From an uncultured Hyphomicrobiales bacterium (GTDB lineage Bacteria; Bacteroidota; Ignavibacteria; Kapaibacteriales; Kapaibacteriaceae), in NCBI GenBank assembly GCA_964620125.1, contig CAZUGQ010000006.1, forward strand, positions 6,216-70,215: a DNA stretch of 64,000 nucleotides, written 5' to 3'. The notes beneath the pieces are model-generated. The model saw only the letters and a list, made by a program, of their open reading frames with translations. It ran no database searches and had not been told where the DNA came from. The number at the start of each line of letters is the position of its first letter. The stretch's first letter is position 1. Below, piece after piece: positions 1 to 56,530 of the stretch. The translations under genes and the position numbers were made by a program.

Positions 1-170
1 CGTGCCCATGTTCACACTTGTCTTGAAGGTACCACCTCCGAATGCCTCATTGATGGTGTAGACAACCTCACCAAGATTGTTCACAAGTTCAATGCGAACG
101 TCTCCTGCCTCGAGGTTAGCAGCTTCAATGTTGAACAGGCCACTCGTTGGGTTCGGGAACACATGAAGCT
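1..170 (-). other. T9SS C-terminal sorting domain (Por secretion tail) of the giant protein, partial; the last ~30 aa lie beyond the window
   Basis: Minus-strand translation contains VFPNPTSG...IELVNNLGEVVYT...FGGGTFKTSVNMGT, the canonical T9SS CTD beta-sandwich motifs. Confidence 0.75.
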
Positions 171-9100: not shown

Positions 9101-12100
9101 TCACCAATTGTCACGTTCCACACTGCAGCAGCGGCGTTCAAGTTGAATGATGTGCTCAACGGAGCAGCACCCGAGTATGCACCAACAGGTGTGAGCTGGA
9201 AGTTCCAGTTACGGGTTACTCCACCACCAGGATATGCTGAAGCATTTCCAGTTATCGCATACGTTCCCCCTACGCAGATTGGAACAGGCACAGTTGGCGC
9301 AAGTACCGTCGGGTCCGGAACAATGTTCACTGACTGAGTGAACGCTACTGCACATCCGCCCACACCAGGATTGGTAACAGTAATGGTCAGATTACCAGAA
9401 GCAACGCCAGGTCCTGGATTGGTGGCTGTAAATGCAACGGATGGAAGATTCAGTGGTGGTGTTAGAGCAATGTTGAGCGGTGTGGTTGTCGACCAGAGGT
9501 ATGTAGCTCCAGGAAGTACTGTTCCAACACCTGGGTTGAAGGTTGCAACTCCACCGTCTCCATTACAAACTGCCGTTGGTACGACCGAAACGGTACCTGT
9601 TGGTTGCGGATTAACCGTGATGTTAAACTCCCGTTCCGTCACGCAGCCAGGCGCTGCTGGGTTGGTTTCGGTAATTCTGATTCTGGCCGAGGTTACCCCG
9701 GCGTTGTACGTAACTCCAAACTGTCCATTAGCAAGATTCAGTGCAACGGAGACGACGCCACCACTCAGGACACTCACACTCCAGTTGTTACCATTTGGCC
9801 ACGGGCCACTAATCTGATAGGTGTGCGGCCCAGTACCGGCACATGGATTTCCTGCAATAGGCGTTACATAACCCGGACCGGAAATTGTTTTCGGTGTAGG
9901 CGACTCAGTTACTGTGACATTCTGAGTAATCGTAACAGCACATCCGGTTGCGATGATGGTTTCAGTTACCGAAACCCAGTTTGCACCAGGCAATGACCAA
10001 CGAACGATAGCATCAAGGTTTGCACCTGCACCGTTCACCAACCAGTTTGAGGTGTTGGTGTTCGTGAATATGCCATTCAGCACCGTGAAATTGTACGAGC
10101 GGCCTGAAACACCAAGAATGCGGTAGGTGTACTCGTACAATGCTCGACCACTTTCTAGTGTTCCACCGATGTATGTACAGCCTTGCGACGGGTTGAGCAA
10201 CCACGTTGGATTCGGAAGTGGATTTACAACAATGTTGTTCAGCGGATTGTGAACTCTGACGCAACCGCCAGAAGTTGTTTCAGTAACGGACACTGAGTAT
10301 GTACCAGGCAACAACCAGTCGATGGTAATGGTGTGGTTGTTTGGAGGAGCAGGAATGGTAGCATTCCAGTTCACACCGGCCGTTCCCGGAGTAATCGACC
10401 AAGTGTACGATGATCCAGGTGTTGCCGCTATGGAATACGTGCGGTTGTCTTGTTCGCACACGGTGCCAGCAGGAGTTTGAACCACTGTGGCTGCTGCCGG
10501 TACACCATTCACCTGGAGAGTATGAACTACCGACGTTGGTCCAGCACATGACCTGTTCGAACCAGGAACTCCAGCAGCACCACCAGTACCGTTTGAAGGC
10601 TGTACCGTGAGAGATGCGGAGTAGTGGCTTGTCGAAGCTGGCCACGCAATCGAAACGGTATTCGTTGGGTGCTGGGTAGTAACCGTAACAGTACCACCAG
10701 ACACAGGGTTACCGTTCATGGTTGTTCCTACCGGTGCACCGGTAAGAACCCAGCGATACAGCGTTGCAGGGGCAGTAGCACCTACACCGGAGGCACCCGC
10801 CTGCGTGTAGATTGCCGTGGTACCAGCGCAGGGGTTACCTGGCTGATTCACTGCTGTGTTTACACCTGGTCCGGTAATTCCTGCTGGTGTTTCAACACCA
10901 GGTGTCCTGTAGAAGGTAGAAGTAATGGTAGCATCCGGGTTGGAAGCACACACGATAGGCACAGAGGTTTGCTCCTCCATGTTAATCGTTACACTCGTTC
11001 CACCTTGCGCCAACAATGCGTTATTGAAGAAAATGGTCGTGTTCTGAGCAGCATTGTTGTTATTTGGAACAAACGCAGTTACTGCCGGGCTAGGCGACGA
11101 CCAGTGGAAGGTGTTCGGTGCATTGCTGTTCGGAACACCTGCAGTGGTGGTTGCATCACCGCATCGGTTAGCACCAAGCGTAATAACCTGCGCTACCGGT
11201 AGTGCAACAACCTGGAAGTTTACTGTGTTCGATGTAACCTGCGATGTTTCACAACCATTAAACGTATAGGTCACAACAGCTGAGTAGCTGTGTGTACCAG
11301 GCGTACGAAAGGCTGGCGGAACTGCGAATGCCGGGGGAATAAATGGATCCACGCCGGGAGTGAAGGTGCCTGCAGTTCCCATTGATGTTGCACCGTCAAA
11401 GTACTCGATGTCAACATCTGCATACGGAGGACCAACAAGAATAGGATCCGACGTGTAGGCCTCGTCATTAATCGCGGCATAGTTCACAAGTGCATTCTGA
11501 TACACTGCGTTACCGGCCGTGCCACACTCATTCTCAAATCCAGCAAACACACCGTAAAAACCTGCACCGGGATTCGGTACATCATCCAAGCGCCATTCGA
11601 TGCGGCTTGGCGTACCGGCATACCCGTCCTCGTAAATGATCAACTGCATGTTGACCACGTTTGCCTGGAATGGGTTCACGAACGGAACATTTTCGTAGGT
11701 GATCACCAGGTAATTGCCATTGGCATCTTCCTGTACTTGCCACCAAATGTTGCCTCCGGCTGCTGGATCCAAATCCACATTACCAAGGATAACGGTCTTG
11801 TTCGGCCCGTTCACGTTTGGAACATTGGCTGGAATAATCCCAGCGTCCACACCATTGAGGAACGTGATGAATCCGTTCGAGGCCACATAGAAGCCATCGT
11901 TGGTAAGATTCAGCAACTCGCCATAGAAGCTGAACTCAAAGTCAGCTCCGCCGGTTTGTTGCGGGTTCTGCTCACCCGAAATCCCATCGTCTCCGAGGGC
12001 AAGGTTGTTTACCGGGCCATTGGCAACGCCACCGGCATTCTGGCCCAGCATACCGCCCGGCCAGAGAAGTGCAGCCGGCGCAGATGGTTGGGGAACGTCC

Positions 12101-12294: not shown

Positions 12295-12367
12295 ACGATC
12301 CTCCGAAGAAGTGTAATGATTGATACAGGTTGTTTGCGTGTTGGAAATGGCCGCTGCCAGTGCAGCA

Positions 12368-12395
12368 AACGCCGAAAGGCGCCCTCGGCGCCGCG
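12368..12395 (-). promoter_or_regulatory. GC-rich palindromic element (CGCCGAAAGGCG overlapping GGCGCC-CTC-GGCGCC) in the leader, ~85 nt upstream of the giant gene start. Possible 5'-UTR structure.
   Basis: Self-complementary GGCGCC hexamers separated by 3 nt, plus an adjacent CGCC/GGCG stem with a GAAA tetraloop, seen directly in sequence. Confidence 0.25.
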
Positions 12396-12673
12396 TTGCA
12401 ATCTGGTTTTTTCGTGGACCGATTGTGCTCGATCCGGCCCCAATGTAGCTATCCATCATACTCGGCTAGTTCTCCGTTCCAGTGCAAAGGAACGGCGCAC
12501 ACCACCCCCAAACCGGGCGTGCGGTGTCGTCAAAGCGCCGCTAAAATACCGCAGGCTGGCATACGCGCCAAACAACATTTGACCACATCCGAAAGATGTT
12601 ACCAACGTCAACTGCCGTTTACACTCCGTAATACACATCTGCATGTGTTGTCCGTACCCTAACGATGAACAAA

Positions 12674-17348: not shown

Positions 17349-17379
17349 GCAGGGTTGCCAAAGCTAGTACATTCGCGAT

Positions 17380-18279
17380 GTGAACTCAGATCCCATCAGC
17401 GTAAAGGAAGCGTATTCGGTTTGCCGATCCGTTACACTTCGCCATGCGAAAACGTTCTATTTCGCATCCAACTTCCTACCACAAGACAAGCGCGATGCCT
17501 GCTATGCAGTGTATGCGTTCTGCAGGTACGTGGACGACATCGTTGACGTAGCCGTCGAGGAACAAGGTCTAACGGTTGACGATGCCATACACCTTGTGGA
17601 GAGATGGCGATCGGATGTGACATCGTTGTATGAACGGGGTAATGATCAGACAGTATCATCCCGAGAATCCGCCGCTGTGCTCCGTGCATGGGAAGATGTG
17701 TTGGCACGGTACCACATACCTCGGTCGTTACCCGAAACACTCATCGATGGGGTGTTGATGGACACGATGGTTACTCGATTCCAGACATTTGATGAGCTGC
17801 GCGAGTACTGCTATAAGGTGGCATCGGTTGTAGGACTGATGACAACGGAGATATTCGGCTATTCCAATCCTGCAGCACGCGATCATGCTGTTGACCTGGG
17901 AATTGCAATGCAGCTTACGAACATCATTCGTGATGTGAAAGAAGATGCAGAGCGTGGACGGATCTACCTGCCTTTGGACGAGTTGTTTGCACTTCAACTC
18001 ACGGAAGATGATGTGTTAAAGCAGCGCTGGTCCAGCGCCGTGGCCTCACTGATCCAAGTGTACGTGCAGAAGGCTGATGCGTACTACGAGAGTGCCAACC
18101 TAGGTATCAGCATGCTGCATCCGAACAGTAGGGTTACTGTGAGACTGATGAGTGCCAACTATCGCAAGATTCTTCGAGTTGTGGAACGGATGAACTACAA
18201 CGTTTTCCTTGGTCGCGCACACACAACCTTTTGGGAGAAGCTTGTGGAAGTACCGCGTGCGCTGTTTGCTCTTCCATGA
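17380..18279 (+). CDS. Phytoene/squalene synthase family protein (trans-isoprenyl diphosphate synthase, head-to-head)
   Basis: Asp-rich motifs YAFCRYVDDIVD and NIIRDVKEDAERGRIYLP, typical of CrtB/SQS/HpnD enzymes. Confidence 0.8.
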   Translation: MNSDPISVKEAYSVCRSVTLRHAKTFYFASNFLPQDKRDACYAVYAFCRYVDDIVDVAVEEQGLTVDDAIHLVERWRSDVTSLYERGNDQTVSSRESAAVLRAWEDVLARYHIPRSLPETLIDGVLMDTMVTRFQTFDELREYCYKVASVVGLMTTEIFGYSNPAARDHAVDLGIAMQLTNIIRDVKEDAERGRIYLPLDELFALQLTEDDVLKQRWSSAVASLIQVYVQKADAYYESANLGISMLHPNSRVTVRLMSANYRKILRVVERMNYNVFLGRAHTTFWEKLVEVPRALFALP

Positions 18280-18326: not shown

Positions 18327-19169
18327 TTAGTAGTGATACCGTACGTCGATTACTCTAAACTGTCCGTACTCCAGATCGCCATCAGCAAGATTCCACACGA
18401 AGTCTACCTCGGTGGGAATCATCACACCTTCATGCTCAGCATAATTCCTGCACACAAGTGTGAAGGTGGTAGGTTCATAGCCACTCTTGGTGTCGCGGTA
18501 TTTATGGTTGGTCACGATTCTCTCCACCTGGCCCATGCTGTTCACATGGAACACAGCTTCCACGCGAACGTTGCCGTCCACAATGATGGCTCGAGCACGA
18601 TTGGCATCAACTTCCTCCCATCGTAGAGTTCGTGTAGGCAGCAAGCCGGTTGGAACCCACACCAGTTCACTCAAAAATCTGAACAACATGCTAGTGCTGG
18701 TTTCAGGTCCTTCGAACTCTTCCAACGTAAGGGCACCGTAGAGTTTGATATGTCCAGACCCTTCTCCATGAAGGTATCCAAGTTTTGCTGTTCGCCACCA
18801 AAATGCATTGTGGCGTAAACGCGCATCCCACACAAATCCCGGCTCCATACCCGAGATAACTTCCGTGGCCACAACATTCATCCAAGGTCGGTTCTTACCA
18901 TGGCGGAATCGCGCTTGCTGCTGGAGAACGGCGTAACGGATGTTCGGCTGGCCATCTTTAAGGACGTAATGGAAGTACCGTTGCATAGCTACAGGCAGCC
19001 GCTCAACCAGGGAAGAAGAGAAATTGGGCAGGCGTTCCTTACCAATGGAGTCCAGCAGACGGCGTGTATACGTGCGCACAAAAAGTCGAGAGCGGATGGA
19101 GCTGGCCATCCACAGCAGAAGTACCGTTCCAAGCGTTGACCCGATAATTACCAGCAGCTTCATCTGCAT
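18327..19169 (-). CDS. Hypothetical membrane-anchored protein (~280 aa from MQMKLL). Its start overlaps the stop of the upstream GT-C gene (TAATG).
   Basis: N-terminal TM helix (LLVIIGSTLGTVLLLWMASS) followed by a soluble domain with no recognised family. The upstream ATG at 19238 would overlap the preceding gene by 70 nt, so the start at 19169 is preferred. Confidence 0.5.
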   Translation of the reverse strand: MQMKLLVIIGSTLGTVLLLWMASSIRSRLFVRTYTRRLLDSIGKERLPNFSSSLVERLPVAMQRYFHYVLKDGQPNIRYAVLQQQARFRHGKNRPWMNVVATEVISGMEPGFVWDARLRHNAFWWRTAKLGYLHGEGSGHIKLYGALTLEEFEGPETSTSMLFRFLSELVWVPTGLLPTRTLRWEEVDANRARAIIVDGNVRVEAVFHVNSMGQVERIVTNHKYRDTKSGYEPTTFTLVCRNYAEHEGVMIPTEVDFVWNLADGDLEYGQFRVIDVRYHY

Positions 19170-20527
19170 TATCGTCCTTTCTCCCACGCCGTAAGCCTGT
19201 TCGACCAATTGTTCAGGAGTGGCGTTGCCGCAACCCATAGATACAACAGCGGAATAAGCTTGAAAACACCGCGGCGAAGTGTCTGCTCAACGATGGCGGC
19301 GGAAAACACCGTACCAACCAGTATCAGACCCACCAGAACTGCTAGGATCCAGATAAGCAGAAGCACAGATCCAACTCGGCGAGTTGCAACTATATTCCAT
19401 ACGAACACTATAGCAAACACCAGAAATGCAGCTCCCCAAAGTCCATGGTCGAAAATGACGTTGCTAAACAAACCACCAGCAACCTGCAGGAATCTTGCCG
19501 CATTGAAGCCTATCAGTTCTCGCGATACGTTTGGCTGAACAGGAAGGTATGTTCGAATGTACAGTCCATTCCATAAGAGGAACATTCCAACCGAAGTAAG
19601 CCCCGTTGCCAGAAGAAACGAACGCATAGCCCCTTTCCAACTTTCTGCGCGCCATACGGCAACACAACAAACGAGTCCGATACCAACAAGCAGGACGGTT
19701 TCGGTTCGGGACCAGCATGCGGCAGCAAACATGATCGCTGCGGGCCACCAGGCCGTGGCAGACTTGCGGTCTGCCGAGAGATAAAGAAGCGTTACGGCCA
19801 CACAGAAGTATGCAGCATTCAGATAGTCGGTTTGCAGCAAGTAGGTGTACCCCAACATCTCTGGCGTAAGGATGAGCAGCATCCACACCACGTTTGCTAT
19901 GAGTGGATGAACCACGTTGCGCATTGCAGCCCAGAACGTCCACGATGCAAGGATGGCAACAATGCTCACCCACACCTGCCCATATGCAAAGCCCATCAGG
20001 CGATACATCACCTGATTCAGCATGGCAAATGGTGCATAAAAGGGTTGATTGCTCAGGTGACCGGCCAGTGTGACATCGGAAAACACACGATTGGCTATGG
20101 TTCCTTCTTCAACGGCATGCCGTGCTACCAGATCGATCCCAGCCATGGCATCGAACGGAGTAACGGGCCAATACCATGCTGCCCATACCACATAGTATGC
20201 TGTGCTACATGCAAACCCCAGGGTAAGCACATCATACATGCGCAAGGTGAATCGTGGTGATTCGAACATCCATCGGTAGAACGACTGGACTCGAGGAAGC
20301 CAGACATTTGATATCACTGCGCCTAGCACAGCCGTGGCCAGAAGCATGGTTTCGTTCAGGCCGAAGCGAATAAGGTCTACGCCAAAGAACAGTACGTTAT
20401 GGAGGAACATGCCAAGCAGCAGTGCAACCGGAAGCACCATGGACTTAGGCAGCCGCGACTGAGTGCTTGCCAGAATACCCAGTCCTGCAATCCATTCCAG
20501 TAGGAGCACAGCTACAAACGTGGTCAT
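19169..20527 (-). CDS. Polytopic membrane protein, GT-C-fold glycosyltransferase-like (ArnT/PMT/GT39-like family)
   Basis: 452 aa with ~11 predicted TM helices and a loop-rich N-terminal half. Its start overlaps the upstream stop by ATGA. Confidence 0.45.
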   Translation of the reverse strand: MTTFVAVLLLEWIAGLGILASTQSRLPKSMVLPVALLLGMFLHNVLFFGVDLIRFGLNETMLLATAVLGAVISNVWLPRVQSFYRWMFESPRFTLRMYDVLTLGFACSTAYYVVWAAWYWPVTPFDAMAGIDLVARHAVEEGTIANRVFSDVTLAGHLSNQPFYAPFAMLNQVMYRLMGFAYGQVWVSIVAILASWTFWAAMRNVVHPLIANVVWMLLILTPEMLGYTYLLQTDYLNAAYFCVAVTLLYLSADRKSATAWWPAAIMFAAACWSRTETVLLVGIGLVCCVAVWRAESWKGAMRSFLLATGLTSVGMFLLWNGLYIRTYLPVQPNVSRELIGFNAARFLQVAGGLFSNVIFDHGLWGAAFLVFAIVFVWNIVATRRVGSVLLLIWILAVLVGLILVGTVFSAAIVEQTLRRGVFKLIPLLYLWVAATPLLNNWSNRLTAWEKGR

Positions 20528-21042
20528 TGCCTACTCCTCAAAGATGCACTGTCTCGCTCGGCAGCCTCATACTCCTTGAGCAAGGAATCAATGTTCACGG
20601 ATCCGCCGGGACGGGTAAGTGTGATGTTCGGCGGGTCGAGTGCAATGAATGCATTGGCCTTGTGGCGCCGTGCAGTATCCGTCCACGCAACAATCGGTTG
20701 AAAGCCAGCCATATAGGTGAAGATGCGCGGATCGGTCCATATCGCCTGAGCCGTCTGGTACCGGCTGGCGTATGCCATAGGCGGCAGAAGCACAACGTCA
20801 GTATCGCGCCGATTGCTGGCAATCCATGTTGGCACGTATGCATTGGCCACATGGCGCATTAGCATGCGTTGCTTCCACGACGTAATGGTCATGAAGGAAT
20901 CTATGCGCTCTGCATAGAAACCGATGCGTTCCTTATGTGAACGGGCGTAGCTGTTAAGCTCTCCCAGTTCGGCGTTATAGAGCAGCAGCAAGAAGACCAG
21001 CAGGATGGCCGACAGGATGAGTGCTCTAACAGTAAAAAACAT
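20524..21042 (-). CDS. Hypothetical protein with N-terminal TM anchor (172 aa). Its start overlaps the atpG stop by 1 nt.
   Basis: ORF with hydrophobic N-terminus (LILSAILLVFLLLLY). It is tightly coupled between atpG and the GT-C gene. Confidence 0.45.
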   Translation of the reverse strand: MFFTVRALILSAILLVFLLLLYNAELGELNSYARSHKERIGFYAERIDSFMTITSWKQRMLMRHVANAYVPTWIASNRRDTDVVLLPPMAYASRYQTAQAIWTDPRIFTYMAGFQPIVAWTDTARRHKANAFIALDPPNITLTRPGGSVNIDSLLKEYEAAERDSASLRSRQ

Positions 21043-21920
21043 CAGCTTGCCGACAGAGCTTCGGCCCCACCAACAATCTCGAGCATCTCCTTGGTGATTG
21101 CGGCCTGCCGTTCACGGTTGTAGATAAGCTGCAACGCAGAAATGAGATCCTTGGCATTGGACGTTGCATTCTCCATCGCAACCATACGCGCAGCCTGCTC
21201 AGCTGCATTAGAGTCGAGGAGTGCCCTCCACACCTGTGTATTCAAGTACTTAGGCAGCAACGAGTCAAGAATGTCGGTACGCGTTGGCTCGAAAATGTAA
21301 TCAACGGAATGTGCACCCTGTTCCTTTTCAACGGGCATGATGGGTAGCAGTGGTAAAATCCGAACTTCCTGCTTGATCACGCTCAGGAACTCATTGAACA
21401 TCAGCTCGATGTGATCTGCACGATGAGCCAGAAACGCATCCGAAGCCAGCTCGGCAACGTTTGTGGCAATCGAGTAGTCAAGCTTGAGGAAGGCATCCGG
21501 AAACCCGGCAACGATCTCTGTTCGCGACTTCCGGAATTGCGCAACAGACTTGCGGCCAATGGCTACCACGCGAATGCTGGCACCGGGATGGAGTTGCTGC
21601 AATTCCGCAATGCGTGATCGAACAGCACGAAAGAGGTTGGTGTTGAAACCACCACACAACCCACGATCGGAGGAAATCACACCAACGATGATGTTCTCCA
21701 CCTTCTTGCGCTGCTCGAAGTAGGGGTGCACAAAGTCCGACTCGGCAGCAGCAAGGTTGCGAAGGATCTTCTCCAGTTGCCTAGCAAAAGGGCGAGCTGC
21801 GGTAATAGCATCCTGCGCTCTGCGCAACTTTGCCGCAGCTACCATTCGCATGGCCTGCGTGATCTTGCTGGTGTTGCGGATTGCAACGATGCGGTTTCGT
21901 GTTTCTCGTAGGGTAGCCAT
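21042..21920 (-). CDS. atpG: F0F1 ATP synthase subunit gamma
   Basis: Full-length gamma subunit: N-terminal MATLRETRNRIVAIRNTSKITQAMRMVAAAKLRRAQ and C-terminal ...ITKEMLEIVGGAEAL. Confidence 0.9.
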   Translation of the reverse strand: MATLRETRNRIVAIRNTSKITQAMRMVAAAKLRRAQDAITAARPFARQLEKILRNLAAAESDFVHPYFEQRKKVENIIVGVISSDRGLCGGFNTNLFRAVRSRIAELQQLHPGASIRVVAIGRKSVAQFRKSRTEIVAGFPDAFLKLDYSIATNVAELASDAFLAHRADHIELMFNEFLSVIKQEVRILPLLPIMPVEKEQGAHSVDYIFEPTRTDILDSLLPKYLNTQVWRALLDSNAAEQAARMVAMENATSNAKDLISALQLIYNRERQAAITKEMLEIVGGAEALSAS

Positions 21921-21941
21921 AGGTGCGTAGTCGGTTCGATT

Positions 21942-22898
21942 TCACAGATAGGGCCACGACGTGGCCAGGTATCCCTGCACATAGTCAGCAATAGCGGTTT
22001 CCAGAGTGGTGGTTGGTGCTCCCACAGCTTCCCGAAGGCGGGTAATGTTTGCACAGGTGTAATTCTGGTACTGGTTTCTCAGGTGTTCTGGCATGGCAAC
22101 ATACTCGATGGCTGGTTCCTTACCCATCGCTGCAAACACTGCCTTCACAAGCTGATTCCAACTGGATGCAACACCCGAACCCACATTCAGGATGCCATGA
22201 ACAGATGGCTGATCCAAACACCGCAACACCACATTTACAGCATCCTTCACGTACACAAAGTCGCGCTGTTGCTCGCCATCCGAAAACTGCGGACTGGTTG
22301 ATGCAAACAATCGCACAACTCCAGTGCTGACCACTTGTTTATATGACTTCCACACCATGCTGGCCTGTTCTGCCTTGTGGTATTCGTTAGGACCGAAGAC
22401 GTTAAAGAATTTGAAGCCTACACAAGCCCCTTCCAAGCCCTGATCTCGTACCCACAAGTCAAACCGGTGCTTTGAATATCCGTACATGTTTAGTGGCCGC
22501 AGGTCACGTTCAGCGTCGTCAAACCCCCGTTCGCCATCACCGTAGGTGGCTGCACTGCTGGCGTAGATGAAGCGCGCATTACGTTCGAGTGCGAACCTGG
22601 CAACATCTACGGAATACCGATAGTTGTTGTCAAACAGGTAGTCGTTGTCCGTTGCCGTTGTAGCGGAGCACGCACCCATGTGAATCACAGCCTCGATGGA
22701 GCCCCACGTTTTACTCTGCAGGTCTCGTCTGAACTGCTCTTTGCTAACGATGTCAAGGAACGAATGATGCGCAATGTTCTTCCACTTTTCTCCCGTTCGA
22801 AGGGAGTCTACGATCAGAACGTCTCGCTGCCCTCGGGCATTCAAGGCTGCCAACACACAGCTGCCGATAAAACCGGCACCTCCAGTGAGTATGATCAT
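21942..22898 (-). CDS. hldD: ADP-L-glycero-D-manno-heptose 6-epimerase
   Basis: MIILTGGAGFIGS..., ...ASSAATYG..., ...YGYSK... and ...FFNVFGPNEYHKAEQASMV... align closely with E. coli HldD/RfaD motifs. Confidence 0.85.
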   Translation of the reverse strand: MIILTGGAGFIGSCVLAALNARGQRDVLIVDSLRTGEKWKNIAHHSFLDIVSKEQFRRDLQSKTWGSIEAVIHMGACSATTATDNDYLFDNNYRYSVDVARFALERNARFIYASSAATYGDGERGFDDAERDLRPLNMYGYSKHRFDLWVRDQGLEGACVGFKFFNVFGPNEYHKAEQASMVWKSYKQVVSTGVVRLFASTSPQFSDGEQQRDFVYVKDAVNVVLRCLDQPSVHGILNVGSGVASSWNQLVKAVFAAMGKEPAIEYVAMPEHLRNQYQNYTCANITRLREAVGAPTTTLETAIADYVQGYLATSWPYL

Positions 22899-22917
22899 GC
22901 GGTAGGTGCCAGAGAAA

Positions 22918-24468
22918 TCATACAGTGGTCATAAACCGTTCCGAGAACGTTCCAATCATCTCGTCAAGCTCACGAGTAATCTCGTCGGTAAGTGCCTTTT
23001 GAACAGACAGCTTGTCAAGCAACGCTGCATGACTCACACGCGCATACTCAAGCAAGTCGGTCTCATACCGCTTTACATCGTCAACCGGTAACTCATCCAT
23101 CGCTCCCTTGGTGGCTGCGTAAATCACCACGATCTGTTCTTCAACAGGAACAGGTTGATATTGCCGCTGCTTCATCACCTCCATAAGGCGTGCACCTCGA
23201 CGCAGTTGCTGTTGCGTACTCTTGTCTAGGTCAGATCCGAACTTGGCAAAGGCTTCCAGAGCACGGTATTGAGCCAGCTCAAGCTTGAGTGGTCCGGCTA
23301 CTTTTTTCATAGCCTTGATCTGTGCATTCCCACCCACACGCGACACGGAGATACCAATGTTCAAAGCAGGGCGAACGCCGGCGTTGAACAGGTTGGGCTC
23401 CAGATAAATCTGTCCGTCAGTAATCGAAATCACGTTTGTTGGGATATACGCGGCAACGTCACCTGCTTGCGTTTCAATCACTGGCAACGCCGTAAGGGAT
23501 CCCCCCCCAAGTCGGTCGCTAAGTTTTGCAGCGCGTTCCAGTAGCCGACTGTGCAGGTAAAAAACATCGCCAGGGTAGGCTTCACGCCCTGGTGGACGGC
23601 GTAGGAGGAGCGACACCTGACGGTATGCGGCTGCCTGTTTGGACAAGTCATCGTAAATCACAAGTGCATGCCGTCCGCTATCACGGAAGTACTCGCCCAT
23701 GCTGCATCCGCAGTATGGGGCGATAAACTGCAAGGGGGCTGGGTCGGACGCAGATGCAGTTACAATGGTTGTATATTCCATTGCACCGTACTTCTCGAGG
23801 GTAGCAAGCACGTTTGCAACGGTTGACCCCTTTTGCCCAATGGCAACGTAGATGCAGTACACAGGCTTGATTCCGCGTTCTGCAGCTTCGGGCGTGTGCG
23901 TGTATTTCTGGTTGATGATCGTGTCTACTGCCACCACGGTTTTACCTGTCTGCCGGTCGCCGATGATCAACTCGCGCTGGCCGCGACCAATCGGAATCAG
24001 GGCATCGATGGCCTTGATCCCCGTTTGCAGAGGTTCGGTAACAGGCTGGCGGTCAATAACGCCAAGGGCTTTTCTTTCGATGGGCAGGTACGCTTCAGTA
24101 TTGATTGGTCCTTTACCATCCAACGGCTGCCCCAGTGGGTTCACAACCCTACCAATCAAGGCTTCGCCAACGGGTACCGAGGCAATACGGCCAGTGCGCT
24201 TAACCTGATCACCTTCCTTTACCTGTGAATCGTCGCCAAACAGCACAACACCTACGCTGTCTTCTTCAAGGTTCAGTACCATTCCCACAACGCCGTTCGG
24301 GAACTCCACAAGCTCCGATACCATCACGTTTGTGAGACCATAGATGCGGGCTACGCCGTCGCCCACCTGAAGAACTGTGCCTACCTCGTAGATGTCGGTT
24401 TCGTTCTCAAATCCTGAGAGTTGGCGCCGAAGGATGGCGGAGATCTCTTCGGGTCTTACTTCAGCCAT
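22918..24468 (-). CDS. atpA: F0F1 ATP synthase subunit alpha
   Basis: Walker A GDRQTGKT, 516 aa, alpha-subunit N- and C-terminal domains. Confidence 0.95.
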
Positions 24469-24489: not shown

Positions 24490-25029
24490 TCATGTATGTG
24501 CGAGTTCATGCTTCAGTTCTTGAAGCCGATGGCGCAGAGAACCGTCCAAAACGATATCGCCGATGCGAACAACCACACCGCCGATCAGGTCTGGTTTCGA
24601 TGCGAATGTTGGTACCACGTGTTTTCCGGTGCGCTGCTCTAGTGCTGTTTGCAGTTTTTTCTGCGAGGAACCGTCGAGTGCCGCTGCGCTGTTTACGGTA
24701 ACCCGAAGAACGTTGTTTTTGGCATCGAGCAGTTCCTGGAATACCTGTGCAATGTGACCAAGGTATGCCTCCCGGCCTTTCTCGATTACCAGCACGATAA
24801 AGGCGAGGGTGAGTTCCGAAACCTGTCCTGCAAAAACATCCTTGGCAATGTTCATCTTCTGCCATGCCTTTACAACAGGACTGCGGAAAACGATTCGCAG
24901 GTCTGGTGCCGATTCAAGTATTCTGCGCACGGTTGCTAGGTCGGATTCAACAGTGCTGGTGCACTTCAGTCGCTCCGCTTCTTGCAGTAGAGCCATGGCG
25001 TAGCGACTGGAGATGGCCTTGGTTGACAT
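24490..25029 (-). CDS. atpH: F0F1 ATP synthase subunit delta (OSCP)
   Basis: 179 aa OSCP-like protein, positioned between atpF and atpA. Confidence 0.8.
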   Translation of the reverse strand: MSTKAISSRYAMALLQEAERLKCTSTVESDLATVRRILESAPDLRIVFRSPVVKAWQKMNIAKDVFAGQVSELTLAFIVLVIEKGREAYLGHIAQVFQELLDAKNNVLRVTVNSAAALDGSSQKKLQTALEQRTGKHVVPTFASKPDLIGGVVVRIGDIVLDGSLRHRLQELKHELAHT

Positions 25030-25033
25030 AGCT

Positions 25034-25528
25034 TCAGTTCTTAGAGATATCGTTTACGTATTCTTCAACCAAGCGCTTTTGGTCAGCATCCTGAATGGTG
25101 CGGCCAAGCAATTTTTCCGTTGCTTCTACAACAAGCGTTGATACTTCCGCACGCAGAGCTGCGATGGCTTCGTCCTTTTGCCGTTCTATCTCGCGCTGTG
25201 CCTCCACCAACTTCTGATGTTTTACGGCGTCGGCCTCCTCGGTAGCCCGTCGTATAAGTGCTTCTCCCTGTGACTTCCCTTCGCGAATGATTGACATCAC
25301 CTCCGCTTGGGCACCGGCGATCTTTTCCTTGGCCTCTTTCAGCAGACTCTGCGATTCGGCATTCGCACGCTCAGCGGCATGAATGTTATCGGCAATTGCC
25401 TTCTCACGTGCCTCGAGACCTGCACGCATGGGCTTCCACGCAAACCGTGCGATGATGTATGCAAAGATGGTGAAGTTGACGAGGCTCCAGAAGAGCAGGC
25501 CGGGTTGGAGTTGGAGGAAGTCTGGCAT
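25034..25528 (-). CDS. atpF: F0F1 ATP synthase subunit b
   Basis: N-terminal TM helix followed by a long charged coiled-coil (EAREKAIADNIHAAERANAES...). Confidence 0.8.
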   Translation of the reverse strand: MPDFLQLQPGLLFWSLVNFTIFAYIIARFAWKPMRAGLEAREKAIADNIHAAERANAESQSLLKEAKEKIAGAQAEVMSIIREGKSQGEALIRRATEEADAVKHQKLVEAQREIERQKDEAIAALRAEVSTLVVEATEKLLGRTIQDADQKRLVEEYVNDISKN

Positions 25529-25670
25529 ATGAGGGACTGGAGGGACTGGAGGGACTGGAGGGACTAGAGGGGAGGTTGAGTTTGGGTTAGAGGGGTTGGG
25601 AGAGAGGCAGAGTCGGGAGGTCTGGGGAAGGCTTCCCGACTCTGACCCCGGCGTGCGGGGTCGGTGCAGG
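25529..25670 (-). promoter_or_regulatory. atpE-atpF intergenic RNA element. On the transcribed strand, two stem-loops lie immediately after atpE, then a ~85-nt purine-poor CU-rich tract ends in (CAGUCCCUC)x4 abutting the atpF AUG.
   Basis: 11-bp perfect stem CAGAGTCGGGA/TCCCGACTCTG (25608..25644) and 5-bp stem CCCCG/CGGGG (25646..25660). The plus strand carries GAGGGACTG x4-5 at 25531..25575. The intergenic region is 142 nt, whereas other atp junctions are 4-25 nt. Confidence 0.5.
25531..25575. repeat. Tandem 9-nt repeat GAGGGACTG (4 perfect-or-near copies plus 1 degenerate)
   Basis: gagggactg gagggactg gagggactg gagggacta gaggggagg, read directly. Confidence 0.9.
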
Positions 25671-25901
25671 TTATGATTTTACTGCGAGCAGAATGCAGAT
25701 AACGCCGGCGAGAAGTGCCACGCCTTCGATAAGGGCGGCACCGATGATCATCGTTGTGCGGATGTCACCGGCGTTCTCGGGTTGGCGGCTGCTGGCTTCA
25801 AGGGCGGCGGCGGCAAGGCGACCGATGCCGGTGCCTACGCCAAAAACCGTCACGCCCACGCCGAGACCGGCTGAGAGCCATGCGAATGCTACTGCGTCCA
25901 T
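25671..25901 (-). CDS. atpE: F0F1 ATP synthase subunit c
   Basis: 76-aa two-helix proteolipid with a GxGxGxG helix-1 motif and a carboxylate in helix 2 (...AALIEGVALL...). Confidence 0.9.
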   Translation of the reverse strand: MDAVAFAWLSAGLGVGVTVFGVGTGIGRLAAAALEASSRQPENAGDIRTTMIIGAALIEGVALLAGVICILLAVKS

Positions 25902-25926: not shown

Positions 25927-27012
25927 TTAGCTGATGGTAGTCGTGTGCTTGAGTTCGAGACCATCGTGGTCGTGATGATGCTCGTGATGTTCATCGTGTG
26001 TTGCATGCTCGCCAAGTGCAAGACCTACGAACACAGAGGTGAGCATGGCGAAGATGTACGCTTGGAGGAAGGCTACAAGTAGTTCGAGTAGATAGATGAA
26101 CACCGAAAAGCCAACACTTACCGGAGTTACAAGCCACGACTCGAAGAAGAAAATGAGCCCAACCAACGCCAGAAGAACGATGTGCCCTGCCGTCATGTTC
26201 GCGAATAGACGAATCATCAAAGCAAAGGGCTTGGTGAACATCGAAATGATCTCTATCGGCACCATTATTAGAGCCATGTACCAGGGGGCTCCACCAAGCA
26301 GGTGGTGTAGCCAGGCCATGATACCGGCATCCTTAATGGCAATGTAGTTCACCACAAGGAAGGATGTTAATGCAAGTGCCGCGGTTAGCCCTAAGGCTCC
26401 AGTGGCGGCATGGTTGCCCGGCAAAAGTCCGAACAGGTTGAGGAAGAGAATGAAAAAGAAGAGCGAGATAATGTATGGCATCAGTCTCATCGCTCTCTTC
26501 ACCGTGCCAACGTTGGGCACAACAATCTGATCCCGTATGTATACCACCAGGCTCTCAAGCAAGTTCTGCAAACCCTTGGGTGCTGCAAGCGGATGGGAAC
26601 GATACCGACGCGTGCCAATGATGAACAACAAGGAAATCACAGCTATCGCCAACCACTCATACACCACGAAGTTGGTAACGGAAAGGTCCAACATCGGATG
26701 CCCATGATCGCTCTTCCTCACCGGATGGCCTTCGTGTAATGTGTACAGGCCTGCCTGCTCCATCGCCGATGTGTTGGCATAGACGTGCAGTCCGTTGTCA
26801 ACCAAAATCACCGGAGTTACCGGCAAATGCACGAAGAATGCATTGATCTCATGATGATCACCTAACTCTCCGATGAGATGGGTGAAAACTTCCGATCCCT
26901 TTACTTCGCCACCATGGGTAGCGTGAGGATCGGCCGCTCCATGTGCCTGCCCTTCTTGTGGATGACCATGCTCTCCATGCCCACCGTTGTGCTGCGAACT
27001 GTCTGCTTTCAT
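25927..27012 (-). CDS. atpB: F0F1 ATP synthase subunit a, with His-rich N-terminal (~60 aa) and C-terminal (~30 aa) extensions
   Basis: Core a-subunit helices with the conserved Arg region (...LFANMTAGHIVLLAL...). The N-terminus reads MKADSSQHNGGHGEHGHPQEGQAHGAADPHATHGGE and the C-terminus ALGEHATHDEHHEHHHDHDGLELKHTTTIS. Confidence 0.85.
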   Translation of the reverse strand: MKADSSQHNGGHGEHGHPQEGQAHGAADPHATHGGEVKGSEVFTHLIGELGDHHEINAFFVHLPVTPVILVDNGLHVYANTSAMEQAGLYTLHEGHPVRKSDHGHPMLDLSVTNFVVYEWLAIAVISLLFIIGTRRYRSHPLAAPKGLQNLLESLVVYIRDQIVVPNVGTVKRAMRLMPYIISLFFFILFLNLFGLLPGNHAATGALGLTAALALTSFLVVNYIAIKDAGIMAWLHHLLGGAPWYMALIMVPIEIISMFTKPFALMIRLFANMTAGHIVLLALVGLIFFFESWLVTPVSVGFSVFIYLLELLVAFLQAYIFAMLTSVFVGLALGEHATHDEHHEHHHDHDGLELKHTTTIS

Positions 27013-27392
27013 GAAAACCGAAGTACCGGTGTAGGTGTCAGTGATTCAATGGCGTTTTTTTTTAACAGGTCACTTACGGGCGGACGCACCTGTCTCTTCT
27101 GCTTTTCGAACCATTGATGAAAAAAAAGGATCTCTCCCATGAGAAAAACAAAGCAGGATATCGCAAACGTTACGGCAAAGGCTACTTGTTCCATGCCGAT
27201 AACACCGATACATGCCCAGATGGCAATGATGACCAGAATGGCACGTATGCCGAACGAGCCAAAGACTAAGGCAAGGAACGTGTTAAGATCCTTGCCAAAA
27301 GCCCAACGCGATACCACAAAGCCTAGCACAGCGTTGAACACACAGATACCGAACGCAGTCAGTGCTGCCACGATCGGTCCTTTTACGTCCAC
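27009..27392 (-). CDS. Putative ATP synthase protein I-like small membrane protein (4 TM). Its stop overlaps the atpB start (ATGA).
   Basis: 127-aa hydrophobic ORF immediately upstream of atpB. The family assignment is by position and topology only. Confidence 0.5.
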   Translation of the reverse strand: MDVKGPIVAALTAFGICVFNAVLGFVVSRWAFGKDLNTFLALVFGSFGIRAILVIIAIWACIGVIGMEQVAFAVTFAISCFVFLMGEILFFHQWFEKQKRQVRPPVSDLLKKNAIESLTPTPVLRFS

Positions 27393-27661
27393 CCGTTTTC
27401 CTTTCCTGCTTTCCGCCGTTGGTCACGAGCCAGCAACCGCTGGGTGGACCGTAAAAATTGAATGAAGCCAACCACGCTTCCTACTCCAAGGCCAACAACT
27501 AATCCCCACGGAGTACTCCCGGAACGGTTGTCTATCAGCCAACCGATACCGCCCATCAGCAACACGGTGACCGCCAATTGCGATCCCAAAGCCATGTACG
27601 GTGCGAGTTGCCCCATCACCGTTGCTGACCGCTGGTCCTTGGGAGTTTTGGGTAGGGACAT
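27383..27661 (-). CDS. AtpZ/AtpI-family small membrane protein (putative F0F1-ATPase-associated)
   Basis: 92 aa with two TM segments and Gly-rich helices (MGQLAPYMALGSQLAVTVLLMGGIGWLID...GLVVGLGVGSVVGF). It is the first gene of the atp cluster. Confidence 0.5.
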   Translation of the reverse strand: MSLPKTPKDQRSATVMGQLAPYMALGSQLAVTVLLMGGIGWLIDNRSGSTPWGLVVGLGVGSVVGFIQFLRSTQRLLARDQRRKAGKENGWT

Positions 27662-27686: not shown

Positions 27687-27716
27687 CAAAATTAGGCAGA
27701 TGGGCTAAAAACCCAA
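27687..27716 (-). promoter_or_regulatory. Candidate Bacteroidetes-type sigmaA promoter for the atp operon: -33 TTG and -7 TAATTTTG (19-nt spacing), ending ~25 nt upstream of the atpZ ATG
   Basis: The minus-strand sequence ...TTGGGTTTTTAGCCCATCTGCCTAATTTTGCCCGCG... matches the TTG / TAnnTTTG consensus described for Bacteroidetes promoters. It spans the last codons of the upstream gene and the 43-nt gap. Confidence 0.4.
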
Positions 27717-29075
27717 TTCCCTAAGTGATGCCATCACGCCGTCGGTGAAAATATTGCGCGTTTCCCCATACCATCGGTCATTTGGTATGAAGCGTATACC
27801 ACCATAACTCGATGGATTCAAATCATTTAGGGGGCTGGTAGCAATGGTGGTGGTTTCCTCGGGCCGAAACTCGTTATCCACATCGTGCAGGACAACCGTG
27901 CAACCAAACTCTGTTGTGCCATCCTCGTCGAGTGGTGGTGCAGAAAAACCAAGCAGTACCAAGGGTATCCGAACCTTCACAACAAAGCCGTTCGAGCGTT
28001 GCGTTGTAACCACACGTACGGAGTTCAGAACGCTGCTCTGCTCCTGGTCGAACTCATCCGTTGTTTTCACCTTGATCGCTGGTGGAATGTCAGCAAAGTC
28101 GCCAATCTTTACGGCAAACGCATAGATGCCGCTATCTGCCTCTTCTCGTGCTACAACACCCGACCGGCCCACTCTTGTGATTGTTCTACTGTACTGCCCC
28201 TCGGCTGGCTCGTTTACTTCGAACCATAACTCCACCCTGTCGGCCGGACATGTATCACACCAGCCTGTAACCACAGTGCTGTCAACCACGGCAACTCGCA
28301 CATAAAGGTACTCTGCATCATAAACAAATCGTGCCGCGAACGAGGCATCCGAAGCCCCTTTCCACCAATAGGTACCGTTCAGCACATGGTCTATGGAATA
28401 GGCATGAACTTCTGGCTGAATTCCAGCACAGATCTGTCGAGTACGTTCATAACAGGGAATCGTAAGGAATGCATTGCTGTAGATCTCCTCTCCTTCGGCA
28501 TTCTCGAACTTCTCCCGTGTTGCTAATGTGTGGTAGTTGCGGTACTCTTCGTGAGGGAGCATTGCCACCTTGTTCGTGGTGAATTCGTCAACGAGAACAA
28601 CGCTGCCCTGCAGAAAGCGATATCCTTTCATCCCCCAATCATCGTTTTTACGCTTGCGTGCTATGTAGCATGTGGTATCCTTGATAACTACACCAACTTC
28701 CAGCGGCAACTCAACAAAGCTTACTGGAAATGTTGCCACATTCACGAGGTAGCCATCGATATCACCGAATAGATAAACGTGGCACTCCTTCTTTCGAACA
28801 CCAGCAATGTAGATGCTAAAGGCAACATCATTGTAGCCGTCACCGGTAAAGTCACCAACATCCCAGCCCCAAATGCGGTACTGGGCACCGCGCGGCATCA
28901 CCTTTTCGAGATCTCCAATGAGCTCTTTGTCAAAGTAGGTAACGAGTTTCGCAGAGAGTTCCTCGAATGCCATGCCGGTCTGTGCGGTGCCGTTTGCACT
29001 CAACACCAACAAGCCAATGGCACACAAACCCACTCGAAATAAACATGTAAGGGGCTTTGGGTTTCGATACCTCAT
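27705..29075 (-). CDS. Secreted hypothetical protein (456 aa) with an FG-GAP-like N-terminal segment and a possible CBM9/DOMON-like beta-sandwich C-terminal region
   Basis: Signal peptide (LFRVGLCAIGLLVLSANGTAQ), the motif GWDVGDFTGDGYNDVAF, and a start overlapping the kinase stop (ATGA). Confidence 0.45.
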   Translation of the reverse strand: MRYRNPKPLTCLFRVGLCAIGLLVLSANGTAQTGMAFEELSAKLVTYFDKELIGDLEKVMPRGAQYRIWGWDVGDFTGDGYNDVAFSIYIAGVRKKECHVYLFGDIDGYLVNVATFPVSFVELPLEVGVVIKDTTCYIARKRKNDDWGMKGYRFLQGSVVLVDEFTTNKVAMLPHEEYRNYHTLATREKFENAEGEEIYSNAFLTIPCYERTRQICAGIQPEVHAYSIDHVLNGTYWWKGASDASFAARFVYDAEYLYVRVAVVDSTVVTGWCDTCPADRVELWFEVNEPAEGQYSRTITRVGRSGVVAREEADSGIYAFAVKIGDFADIPPAIKVKTTDEFDQEQSSVLNSVRVVTTQRSNGFVVKVRIPLVLLGFSAPPLDEDGTTEFGCTVVLHDVDNEFRPEETTTIATSPLNDLNPSSYGGIRFIPNDRWYGETRNIFTDGVMASLRELGF

Positions 29076-30076
29076 GATTCAATGGTAGGCGATGTGTGAA
29101 GAATTGCATCGCGCACTTCAATGTGGTTTACCTTGAGTCTAGCACCGTACTGTGCAACAACACGAGCACTGCAATACGATGCCAGGCGCCCGGCATGTTC
29201 CGGGTGATGACCATGCAACACTCCATACAAGAAGGCACCAGCATACATGTCTCCAGCACCGGTGGTGTCTACAGTGTCAACTGCATACGCAGGTATGGTT
29301 GCTTCGCGACCGAACCACGACACCATGGAACCATGTTCACCGAGTGTTACTGCCACGTTTCCATACGTGCTGCGAAGCGAACGGTAGGCATCGCGAACAT
29401 TGGACTCCTGAGCTAAAGCCATGGCTTCGTGCTCATTGCAGAAAACCATGTCTGCATGTTTGAGAATGGTCTTTAAACGGTCGCCAAAAACATCAACAAC
29501 AAATCCATCAGAACAGCTTACGGCAACACGTGCGTTGTTCTTGCGTGCAACAAAGGCAGCGTACTCAAGTGCGTCTGCACCAGTCTCCTCGGTAAGCTTG
29601 TATCCTTCAAGCAACAACCACTCACTGTTCTTTACGATAGCCTCGTCAACATCTCTTCTTCCAAAGGTTACGTTGGCTGCTAGGGTTGTGTTTAGCGTCC
29701 GTTCTCCGTCGGGCGTGATCAGCACGATGCATGTTCCGGTGTCAAGACCCGAACGCTCGTCCGCATGGAGTATAATGCCAAGGTTCCGGAACTCGTCTGC
29801 ATAAAACCTGCCAATCTTGTCGGATCCAAGAACCGAGATAAAGCCAGCACTGCCCCCAAACTGTGCAAAGGCCATGATGCTGTTGCCTGCCGAGCCACCG
29901 GAGCTGCGATGTGATTCTCGATCGCCAAGCGCATCAAGAATCTCAGCCTGCCGGGAAGGCTCGGTAAGAGTCATGGCTCCCTTCTTGATGCCGAAGCGAG
30001 CAAGTTCTTCTTCTGTAACACTGAACTCAGCATCAACCAGGGCATTGCCGATGCCAGTAAGGAGAACCTTGCTCAT
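29072..30076 (-). CDS. PfkB-family carbohydrate/nucleoside kinase (adenosine kinase-like). The start at MSKVLL overlaps the ddl stop (ATGA).
   Basis: Motifs GGSAGNS and DTTGAGDMYAGAFLYG (PfkB signature 2). The upstream in-frame extension to 30205 would overlap ddl and is rejected. Confidence 0.75.
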   Translation of the reverse strand: MSKVLLTGIGNALVDAEFSVTEEELARFGIKKGAMTLTEPSRQAEILDALGDRESHRSSGGSAGNSIMAFAQFGGSAGFISVLGSDKIGRFYADEFRNLGIILHADERSGLDTGTCIVLITPDGERTLNTTLAANVTFGRRDVDEAIVKNSEWLLLEGYKLTEETGADALEYAAFVARKNNARVAVSCSDGFVVDVFGDRLKTILKHADMVFCNEHEAMALAQESNVRDAYRSLRSTYGNVAVTLGEHGSMVSWFGREATIPAYAVDTVDTTGAGDMYAGAFLYGVLHGHHPEHAGRLASYCSARVVAQYGARLKVNHIEVRDAILHTSPTIES

Positions 30077-31089
30077 TCCGCACTCTCCAAACTCAGCGTG
30101 ATAAGTTCTTCGCACAGTGCGCCAAATTCGATGCCGGCTTCTCGTGCAGCCATGGGTACCAGACTCAACTCTGTAAATCCTGGTGATGTGTTTACTTCCA
30201 AGCAAACGGGAACGGAGTCGTCATTGAGCCTAAAATCAACGCGGCTTATCGCACGGCAACCGATTACGGTATGCGCCGCAACCGCCAGACTCATCACGTA
30301 GTCGCGAACATCCTCTGTAAGATCTGCCGGACAGTGATACTCCGTTTGCCCCTTGGTGTACTTGTGCTCGTAGTCATAGAATCCCTCATTGGGTATGATT
30401 TCGATCACAGGCAATGCCTCGTTACCTAATACGGCAACAGTAAGCTCACGCCCTGCAATGTATCGTTCGATGAGAATTGTGTTGGAGTACTCACCTGCTG
30501 TGTGAATGGCTTCGGCTATGTCGTCAGCAACACCGCTATGAACAATGGTCATCCCAACGGTTGACCCCTGATCATTGGGTTTGACAACTATCGAGCCGGG
30601 TAGCTCTCGGCGTATCTCGTCAAGCACATCAATGTTACTAGCCTGATGTGGTTTAACGGTAACCCAGTGTGGTGTTGGTACACCAGCAACCTGCAACATC
30701 AACTTGGCGGCAGCCTTATCCATGGCAAGAGCACTTGCCAGCATCCCACTCCCGGTGTAAGGAATGCCATAGAGGTCCAGTATGGCTTGCACGTATCCAT
30801 CTTCTCCGTACTTGCCATGGAGCACGTTGAACACAACATCAGCTTCACGTACCTCCGGCACATGAGGAAGTTGTGCAATCAAGGTGTGGTCCAGCCCCCT
30901 GAGAAAATCATTCGATACCGATGCAGCCGTTGCACGTGCAAGCTCGGCGTCGGATACGACGCCGGCTACGGGATCAACAGGAGTAACCGTATGACCACGC
31001 TCGCGAAGAGCCTTCGTAACTGCACGGCCACTGAGTAGCGAGATGTTGCGTTCGGGGCTCATGCCACCAAGGAGGACTGCAATCTTCAT
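30073..31089 (-). CDS. ddl: D-alanine--D-alanine ligase
   Basis: MKIAVLLGGMSPERNISLLSGRAV..., ...FNVLHGKYGEDG... and an ATP-grasp C-terminal half. Confidence 0.9.
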   Translation of the reverse strand: MKIAVLLGGMSPERNISLLSGRAVTKALRERGHTVTPVDPVAGVVSDAELARATAASVSNDFLRGLDHTLIAQLPHVPEVREADVVFNVLHGKYGEDGYVQAILDLYGIPYTGSGMLASALAMDKAAAKLMLQVAGVPTPHWVTVKPHQASNIDVLDEIRRELPGSIVVKPNDQGSTVGMTIVHSGVADDIAEAIHTAGEYSNTILIERYIAGRELTVAVLGNEALPVIEIIPNEGFYDYEHKYTKGQTEYHCPADLTEDVRDYVMSLAVAAHTVIGCRAISRVDFRLNDDSVPVCLEVNTSPGFTELSLVPMAAREAGIEFGALCEELITLSLESAE

Positions 31090-36737: not shown

Positions 36738-36761
36738 GGCGACAAAACTAGAACGAACCGA

Positions 36762-39599: not shown

Positions 39600-39600
39600 G

Positions 39601-44183: not shown

Positions 44184-44226
44184 GCCGTAGGTTTGTGCAT
44201 GTTTCCGGATTGTTGCAAGGTGCTAT

Positions 44227-53850: not shown

Positions 53851-53924
53851 GGCGCAGGTACTGAGCTTGATGTGAACCATGAAGGGTGCAAAGACGGCAG
53901 TGCGCAAGGTTTCGTTACACGAGA

Positions 53925-56505: not shown

Positions 56506-56530
56506 GCGGGCAAAGATAGTGGCAGGGGGC

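Follow-up and report, generated by a model that had tools for sequence, protein, structure and literature searches.

In a 64,000-nt window of contig CAZUGQ010000006.1 (GenBank assembly GCA_964620125.1, from an uncultured bacterium labelled Hyphomicrobiales and placed by GTDB in the Kapaibacteriaceae), the genes of the F1Fo ATP synthase are interrupted by a complete hldD, the gene for the lipopolysaccharide (LPS) heptose epimerase, which lies between atpA and atpG. The order atpA-hldD-atpG is a lineage norm, a synapomorphy of the Kapabacteria; it is neither unique to this genome nor the product of recent transfer or misassembly. The arrangement is a gene-order variant of the known atp operon of the Fibrobacteres-Chlorobi-Bacteroidetes (FCB) group. 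Its two parts, an F1Fo operon and an LPS heptose epimerase, are textbook; their arrangement is unusual. An earlier note on this DNA had placed a full-length hldD 19 nt after atpA and 21 nt before atpG, and this agrees exactly with the list of open reading frames (ORFs), with the sequence and with the match to the family model TIGR02197.

The identity of the inserted ORF was established by profile searches, structural matches and comparison of catalytic residues. The 318-aa protein scores 382.5 bits against TIGR02197 (ADP-glyceromanno-heptose 6-epimerase; cutoff 274.6), with residues 2-312 covering positions 1-315 of the 316 in the model, whereas other models of the short-chain dehydrogenase/reductase (SDR) superfamily remain far under their cutoffs (GalE 83.7, cutoff 262; RmlB 61.9, cutoff 365). 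The closest solved structures are those of E. coli AGME/HldD, 1EQ2 (E=2e-66) and 2X6T, and full-length pairwise alignment with E. coli HldD gives 41% identity. The two proteins share the family, the NADP-binding motif and the catalytic residues: the N-terminal Rossmann motif GxxGxxG is present as GGAGFIGS at residues 6-13, and S115, Y139, K143 and K175 align to E. coli Ser116, Tyr140, Lys144 and Lys178, which we take from the literature on 1EQ2 and on the two-base mechanism to be the SDR Ser/Tyr/Lys triad and, for Lys178, the second catalytic base. They differ in a loop before RDFVYV that is five residues longer (DGEQQ) in the window protein, as in non-proteobacterial HldD. The cofactor motif and the four catalytic residues are invariant in 8 of 8 divergent atp-embedded copies. 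Because of the TIGR02197 match, the likeness to 1EQ2 and the conserved cofactor and catalytic residues, the ORF is classified as a true HldD orthologue, which is predicted to be functional.

HldD is the last enzyme in the synthesis of ADP-L-glycero-beta-D-manno-heptose for the LPS core. Profile scans of the 64-kb window found no other gene of the heptose pathway. A PfkB kinase encoded at 29072-30205 was considered as a heptose-7-phosphate kinase and rejected as generic, with 50 bits against 345 for rfaE_dom_I and a score also far under the HldE cutoff. In the related metagenome-assembled genome (MAG) of "Ca. Thermonerobacter thiotrophicus", two COG2870 genes (ADP-heptose synthase), one COG0241 phosphatase gene and several COG0859 heptosyltransferase genes lie away from the atp cluster (PMC6338057, Table S1). 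The clade thus possesses a pathway in which HldD is required.

Relatives were scanned with one genome per species and with an AtpG alignment as the query, so that hldD was not presupposed, and 15 window proteins were mapped onto the resulting 64 loci. The order atpA-hldD-atpG was present in all 47 fully informative species-level genomes, whose AtpG is 47-78% identical, with four partial loci besides. In contrast, atpA abuts atpG in seven sister loci of the FCB group (L056-L059, L061, L062 and L070; AtpG 42-46%), which are labelled Ignavibacteria, Chlorobiota, Bacteroidetes or, wrongly, Chromatiales and Ectothiorhodospiraceae. The direct junction is also seen in two Dehalococcoidia loci and one Mycoplasma locus. 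The nearest homologues of the HldD protein itself (57-67% identity) are MAG proteins annotated as Ignavibacteria, Kapabacteria or Kapaibacterium, and the contexts of two of them read CBM9-like, AtpZ-like, atpBEFHA, hldD, atpG, 172-aa, 452-aa, DUF6544 and radA. Contigs from JGI, Logan and NCBI likewise show the atpA-hldD-atpG order. When metagenomes were scanned with an HldD alignment, 7 of the best 80 homologues were in an atp context, all with a Kapabacteria-like AtpA, and the remaining 73 (47-55% identity) were not beside atp genes.

The earlier note had called the insertion atypical and had proposed comparative synteny of atpA-atpG as the check. Because sister operons are without hldD and most of the best metagenomic homologues are located away from atp genes, the arrangement is unusual across bacteria as a whole, and to that extent the description stands; novelty in this genome does not, as 47 of 47 relatives share the slot, which by the note's own reasoning makes it a lineage norm. 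The searchable literature yielded no description of hldD (rfaD) within an atp operon, nor of any gene inside the string of F1 genes. More than 50 independent assemblies share the order, which is therefore neither chance nor the misassembly that the earlier note had named as an alternative.

The embedded gene has a common history with its neighbours. A neighbour-joining tree of concatenated AtpA and AtpG groups all 54 operons with hldD into one clade (100 of 100 bootstraps), whose sister is formed by the seven hldD-less FCB operons. HldD distances correlate with those of AtpA (Mantel r 0.91) and AtpG (0.90) almost as AtpA and AtpG correlate with each other (0.95). The G+C content of hldD (0.52; 0.57 at third codon positions) is indistinguishable from that of neighbouring genes, and direct or inverted repeats that would betray a mobile insertion were sought on both sides of the gene, with only short chance matches. 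A neighbour-joining tree of HldD alone recovers a core clade of 46 embedded copies; this tree is weak at depth, and the AtpA and AtpG tree was therefore used for monophyly. Taken together, the clade-wide order, the monophyly, the co-divergence, the matching composition and the lack of repeats fit a single ancient capture followed by vertical inheritance.

Both junctions of hldD are short throughout the clade. Across 52 related loci, the median spacer is 12 nt between atpA and hldD and 29 nt between hldD and atpG, and in 49 of these loci neither spacer exceeds 43 nt. In the window, the 19-nt spacer contains no Shine-Dalgarno sequence, promoter, terminator or significant hairpin (folding versus shuffles, z=-0.2), and the 21-nt spacer no promoter, terminator or significant hairpin (z=-1.3). 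Scanning the 17.3-29.3 kb region for sigma-70 promoters and intrinsic terminators gave counts no higher than those of shuffles, with none at the junctions; the sigma-70 model is unsuited to Bacteroidota. Predicted folding of the 3' end of the operon was like that of shuffled controls, and scanning the entire window for Rfam families and tRNAs gave no match.

As the lineage belongs to Bacteroidota, the sigma-70 model was replaced by a search for TAnnTTTG, the consensus of the Bacteroidetes -7 promoter element. Exact matches are depleted in the window (9 observed, 23 ± 4.6 expected), and five of the nine are right before gene starts or just past the preceding stop codon (Table 1), which points to promoters of the Bacteroidetes style and to very short leaders in this organism. 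One of the five, a candidate operon promoter, precedes the AtpZ-like gene that opens the cluster; from this site to the match upstream of radA (17359-17366), the minus strand holds no further exact match. Of 36 related loci, 35 also have a TAnnTTTG element ahead of their first atp gene. With hldD on the same strand as the atp genes, spacers too short to hold a promoter and a 5' untranslated region, no terminator and an order conserved in distant relatives, the sequence criteria for an operon agree, and co-transcription of hldD with the atp genes is likely. The co-transcription proposed in the earlier note is upheld at this strength, on the evidence of tiny gaps, of the lack of a terminator or hairpin, and of a promoter motif that has its only exact match in this part of the strand before the first atp gene.

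Published expression data, from a metatranscriptome, were found for one relative. On scaffold JGI24185J35167_1000002 of the Kapabacteria member "Ca. Thermonerobacter thiotrophicus", genes 3, 4, 5, 6 and 9 encode gamma, a nucleoside-diphosphate-sugar epimerase, alpha, delta and a, respectively (PMC6338057, Table S1). In the diel classes of this organism, the epimerase, gamma, beta and epsilon are "weak evening" genes, and alpha, delta and a are "strong evening" genes (Thiel et al. 2019, PMC6338057). The class shared by the epimerase and gamma counts in favour of co-transcription, and the pattern as a whole would suit a single transcript with attenuation downstream of atpA.

The explanation that we favour, with a probability of about 0.68, is that of a "locked-in hitchhiker": a functional HldD, captured once, inherited vertically and expressed from one long transcript, with no biochemical link to the ATP synthase. 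The capture between atpA and atpG would have taken place in the common ancestor of the Kapabacteria lineage (in NCBI terms Bacteroidota, Eximiradiia, Kapaibacteriaceae and allies), and the embedded gene would have been passed on vertically ever since. With the Bacteroidetes-type promoter ahead of the AtpZ-like gene as its origin, the transcript would cover atpB-E-F-H-A, hldD and atpG and, in the core clade, also three further genes (172-aa protein, GT-C-type glycosyltransferase, DUF6544 protein). As a housekeeping envelope gene, hldD would thereby obtain constitutive expression from the atp promoter, and it would be kept in place because excision or rearrangement risks breaking an essential operon. 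No biochemical link between HldD and the ATP synthase would be required for this, and dedicated functional coupling of the two is presumably absent.

Several observations weigh against this explanation. Short gaps are weak evidence for an operon in this genome, since the whole 18.3-42.4 kb region is compact and co-directional; three deep-branching loci (L048, L054 and L055) have a gap of about 200-250 nt before atpG, with room for a promoter; the difference in class between atpA and the epimerase in Thermonerobacter may mean internal attenuation or processing, or a separate promoter; and the 3'-terminal parts of atpA or hldD could harbour promoters weaker than the exact consensus. In the tree of HldD alone, the deepest atp-embedded copies are not recovered as a monophyletic group among non-atp hldD, because the internal branches of this tree are very short, and the window holds no heptose-pathway partner of hldD. 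One alternative is an independent transcription of hldD, atpG or both from internal promoters in upstream coding sequence, with the adjacency being physical only. To the compactness of the genome, the long gaps in three loci and the separate expression class of atpA in the related organism, this alternative adds a TAnnTTTG match located 38-42 nt before atpG in five related loci. However, these five matches stem from the conserved C-terminal Tyr-Leu-stop codons of HldD (TAC CTT TGA), are about as many as expected by chance, and come in four cases from close relatives. Neither atpA nor hldD of the window contains an exact -7 motif, no sigma-70-like site is found at the junctions, and, as no terminator follows atpA or hldD, read-through is to be expected even if internal promoters exist. 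Independent transcription is thus a fairly unlikely explanation. The possibility that the ORF encodes an HldD-like SDR with another substrate or role, such as another nucleoside-diphosphate-sugar epimerase or a partner of the ATP synthase, draws on the unusual location, on the absence of any further heptose-pathway gene from the window and on the generic COG0451 annotation, the only one that IMG gives to the Thermonerobacter orthologue. It appears very improbable in view of a TIGR02197 score more than 100 bits over the cutoff, with GalE, RmlB and other SDR models far below theirs, of the complete set of catalytic residues and cofactor motif, and of a related MAG whose ADP-heptose synthase and heptosyltransferases would require the product of HldD. 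The window belongs to one NCBI contig of 127 kb. That its gene order came about through faulty assembly or binning, or through horizontal insertion in this genome alone and in recent times, is hardly conceivable: nothing was found in support of this, independent assemblies agree on the order across studies and assemblers, and hldD resembles its neighbours in composition, co-diverges with the atp genes and lacks flanking repeats. Comparative synteny refutes this reading.

The placement of hldD might, on the other hand, be adaptive. The complex contains one copy of gamma and three of alpha, and the approximately 1-kb hldD could act as a spacer or attenuator that lowers gamma relative to alpha; alternatively, the supply of ADP-heptose, together with the GT-C glycosyltransferase in the core clade, could be tied to expression of the ATP synthase. 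Indeed, even distant members of the clade keep hldD in this slot (pairwise AtpG identity down to 44%). In the core clade, atpG is succeeded by the envelope-type genes for the 172-aa and PMT_2-like proteins, the start of each overlapping the stop of the gene before it, and the expression class of the epimerase and gamma is weaker than the one that contains alpha, delta and a (PMC6338057). The difficulty of excision from an essential operon, however, explains the conservation equally well, and sister lineages manage the alpha:gamma stoichiometry without a spacer. Furthermore, the deepest branches with hldD do not have the envelope genes downstream of atpG, so that an "envelope module" is not coextensive with the insertion, and neither the Rfam scan nor the folding of the junctions revealed a regulatory RNA, riboswitch or structured element. 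On balance, we consider an adaptive placement unlikely. Somewhat more doubtful still is a functional hldD slot in a composite "energy plus envelope" operon of Kapabacteria, in which the ATP synthase promoter would drive hldD and, in the core clade, the genes for the 172-aa protein and the GT-C glycosyltransferase. The supply of LPS-core heptose would then be proportional to respiratory capacity, the hldD segment would tune the alpha:gamma ratio, or both; if true, this would represent a regulatory architecture so far undescribed for F-type ATPase operons.

Comparison with known systems shows which parts of the arrangement are familiar. In E. coli and Salmonella, hldD (rfaD, htrM) heads the LPS-core operon hldD-waaF-waaC-waaL. 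There it has heptosyltransferase partners in the operon, whereas here it is located away from other LPS genes, between two F1 genes. The surrounding cluster has the same gene set and order as the split FCB operon atp(Z/I)BEFHAG, with atpG last and beta and epsilon outside the cluster. In the Bacteroidota/Chlorobiota group, it is the norm that atpDC are encoded apart from atpBEFHAG. Consistently, scans with family profiles found no gene for beta or epsilon (atpD, atpC) within the 64-kb window, and in the Thermonerobacter MAG both are on another scaffold (PMC6338057). The difference lies in hldD, which stands between atpA and atpG in the Kapabacteria clade, while sister operons have nothing there. 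Envelope genes are known beside atp operons elsewhere: in E. coli, glmU-glmS comes just after atpC, Bacillus subtilis has murAA downstream of its atpC, and the atp genes of mycobacteria are preceded by wecA/rfe and followed by murA. All of these flank the atp operon and are generally regarded as separate transcription units. Neighbourhoods in which an envelope-precursor gene is linked to an atp cluster thus recur; the hldD of Kapabacteria differs in being inside the F1 string and not at its flank.

The products of atpB, E, F, H, A and G are encoded on one strand in canonical order, and each exceeds the equivalog cutoff of its NCBIfam model (NCBIfam and Pfam searches; Table 1). The direct succession of atpG to atpA that marks the FCB-type operon is replaced by an intervening hldD. 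Two features of the Fo genes were seen in addition. The atpB product carries His-rich N-terminal (…HNGGHGEHGHPQ…HATHGG…) and C-terminal (…HATHDEHHEHHHDHD…) extensions outside the core ATP-synt_A domain. The spacer between atpE and atpF (25529-25670, minus strand) is unusually long at 142 nt; right after the atpE stop, it contains two neighbouring hairpins (minimum free energy -31.1 kcal/mol, z=-2.9), and 3' of these a C-rich tract, in which a 9-nt unit, AGTCCCTCC, is repeated four times in tandem, extends up to the atpF ATG. This spacer may be an element of mRNA stability or processing that boosts expression of the c subunit.

Table 1. The atp-hldD cluster, its downstream genes and candidate promoter elements, in coordinates of the 64,000-nt window
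Feature	Position	Strand	Evidence or remark
Candidate operon promoter TAATTTTG, exact TAnnTTTG match	27687..27694	-	25 nt upstream of AtpZ-like ATG
TAnnTTTG matches before genes	27687-27694, 17359-17366, 36743-36750, 56511-56518	-	
TAnnTTTG match before a gene	44188-44195	+	
AtpZ-like small membrane protein, first gene of the cluster	27383..27661	-	PF09527 ATPase_gene1, E=9e-12; kept in related loci
Hydrophobic 127-aa ORF at the atpI position	27009..27392	-	No family match; kept in related loci
atpB, Fo subunit a	25927..27012	-	TIGR01131, 135.5 bits (cutoff 102.6)
atpE, Fo subunit c	25671..25901	-	TIGR01260, 49.3 bits (cutoff 43.95)
atpF, Fo subunit b	25034..25528	-	TIGR01144, 90.6 bits (cutoff 65.5)
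atpH, F1 delta	24490..25029	-	TIGR01145, 116.8 bits (cutoff 57.5)
atpA, F1 alpha	22918..24468	-	TIGR00962, 822.5 bits (cutoff 484)
atpA-hldD spacer, 19 nt	22899..22917	-	Sequence read, motif scans, folding
hldD, ADP-L-glycero-D-manno-heptose 6-epimerase, 318 aa, 957 nt	21942..22898	-	TIGR02197
hldD-atpG spacer, 21 nt	21921..21941	-	Sequence read, motif scans, folding
atpG, F1 gamma, final atp gene of the cluster	21042..21920	-	TIGR01146, 314 bits (cutoff 194)
172-aa protein with N-terminal hydrophobic segment	20524..21042	-	No family match; start overlaps atpG stop; conserved after atpG in the core clade
452-aa polytopic membrane protein, probably GT-C (PMT_2/ArnT-like) glycosyltransferase	19169..20527	-	Start overlaps stop of the 172-aa gene; position conserved
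DUF6544/DUF6920 protein, last co-directional gene	18327..19238	-	E about 1e-55

The genes that follow atpG lend the tail of the operon an envelope flavour. The 452-aa protein is probably a GT-C membrane glycosyltransferase: it matches the family of Leptospira LA_3751/LA_3752 putative glycosyltransferases with E=1e-7, a score under the cutoff, and 4 of its 10 orthologues match PMT_2 (best E=2.8e-6); a profile search against PDB sequences returned no match. The DUF6544 gene is convergent with a phytoene synthase-like gene (17380-18279, plus strand). The trio of 172-aa, 452-aa and DUF6544 genes, joined to atpG and to one another by overlaps of stop and start codons, is conserved in this position in the core clade (loci L001-L046). 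It is missing from the core members L015 and L066 and from the deep hldD-bearing branches L047-L055; given its absence from the deepest of these branches, the trio appears to have been added later and not to be tied to the insertion of hldD.

Further observations concern the remainder of the window and its relatives. The atp cluster is part of about 24 kb of unbroken, co-directional and packed genes (18327-42435, minus strand) that includes subtilases, clpB, ddl, pfkB, a CBM9-like gene and the DUF6544 gene. The minus-strand regions 36762-42435 and 50251-53907 encode two tandem subtilases (Peptidase_S8) of about 945 aa and a 1218-aa WD40/beta-propeller protein; the upstream subtilase carries a C-terminal sorting domain of type IX secretion, and the beta-propeller protein carries a tail of the same secretion system. 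A frame without stops for more than 4155 codons (1-12465, minus strand) runs past the start of the window and represents a giant gene, which the ORF list missed because it is cut at the window edge. Kapabacteria-type operons are also found in MAGs labelled Hyphomicrobiales, Bradyrhizobiaceae, Patescibacteria and Chitinophaga pinensis (L007, L008, L010, L039, L040, L041, L053 and L066); these records probably have wrong taxonomic labels or contain mis-binned contigs.

The atpA-hldD-atpG order provides a clade-defining synteny marker that separates Kapabacteria-type operons from those of other MAGs labelled Ignavibacteria, Chlorobiota or Bacteroidetes, and it singles out MAGs that wrongly carry the labels Hyphomicrobiales, Bradyrhizobiaceae, Patescibacteria or Chitinophaga. 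Its significance would be greater only if the coupling of hldD with the atp genes turns out to be regulatory. For the biology of these uncultured Bacteroidota, the predicted HldD indicates that they make heptose-containing LPS, and their atp operon offers a natural case of an unrelated housekeeping gene trapped over a long term inside an essential, stoichiometry-sensitive operon.

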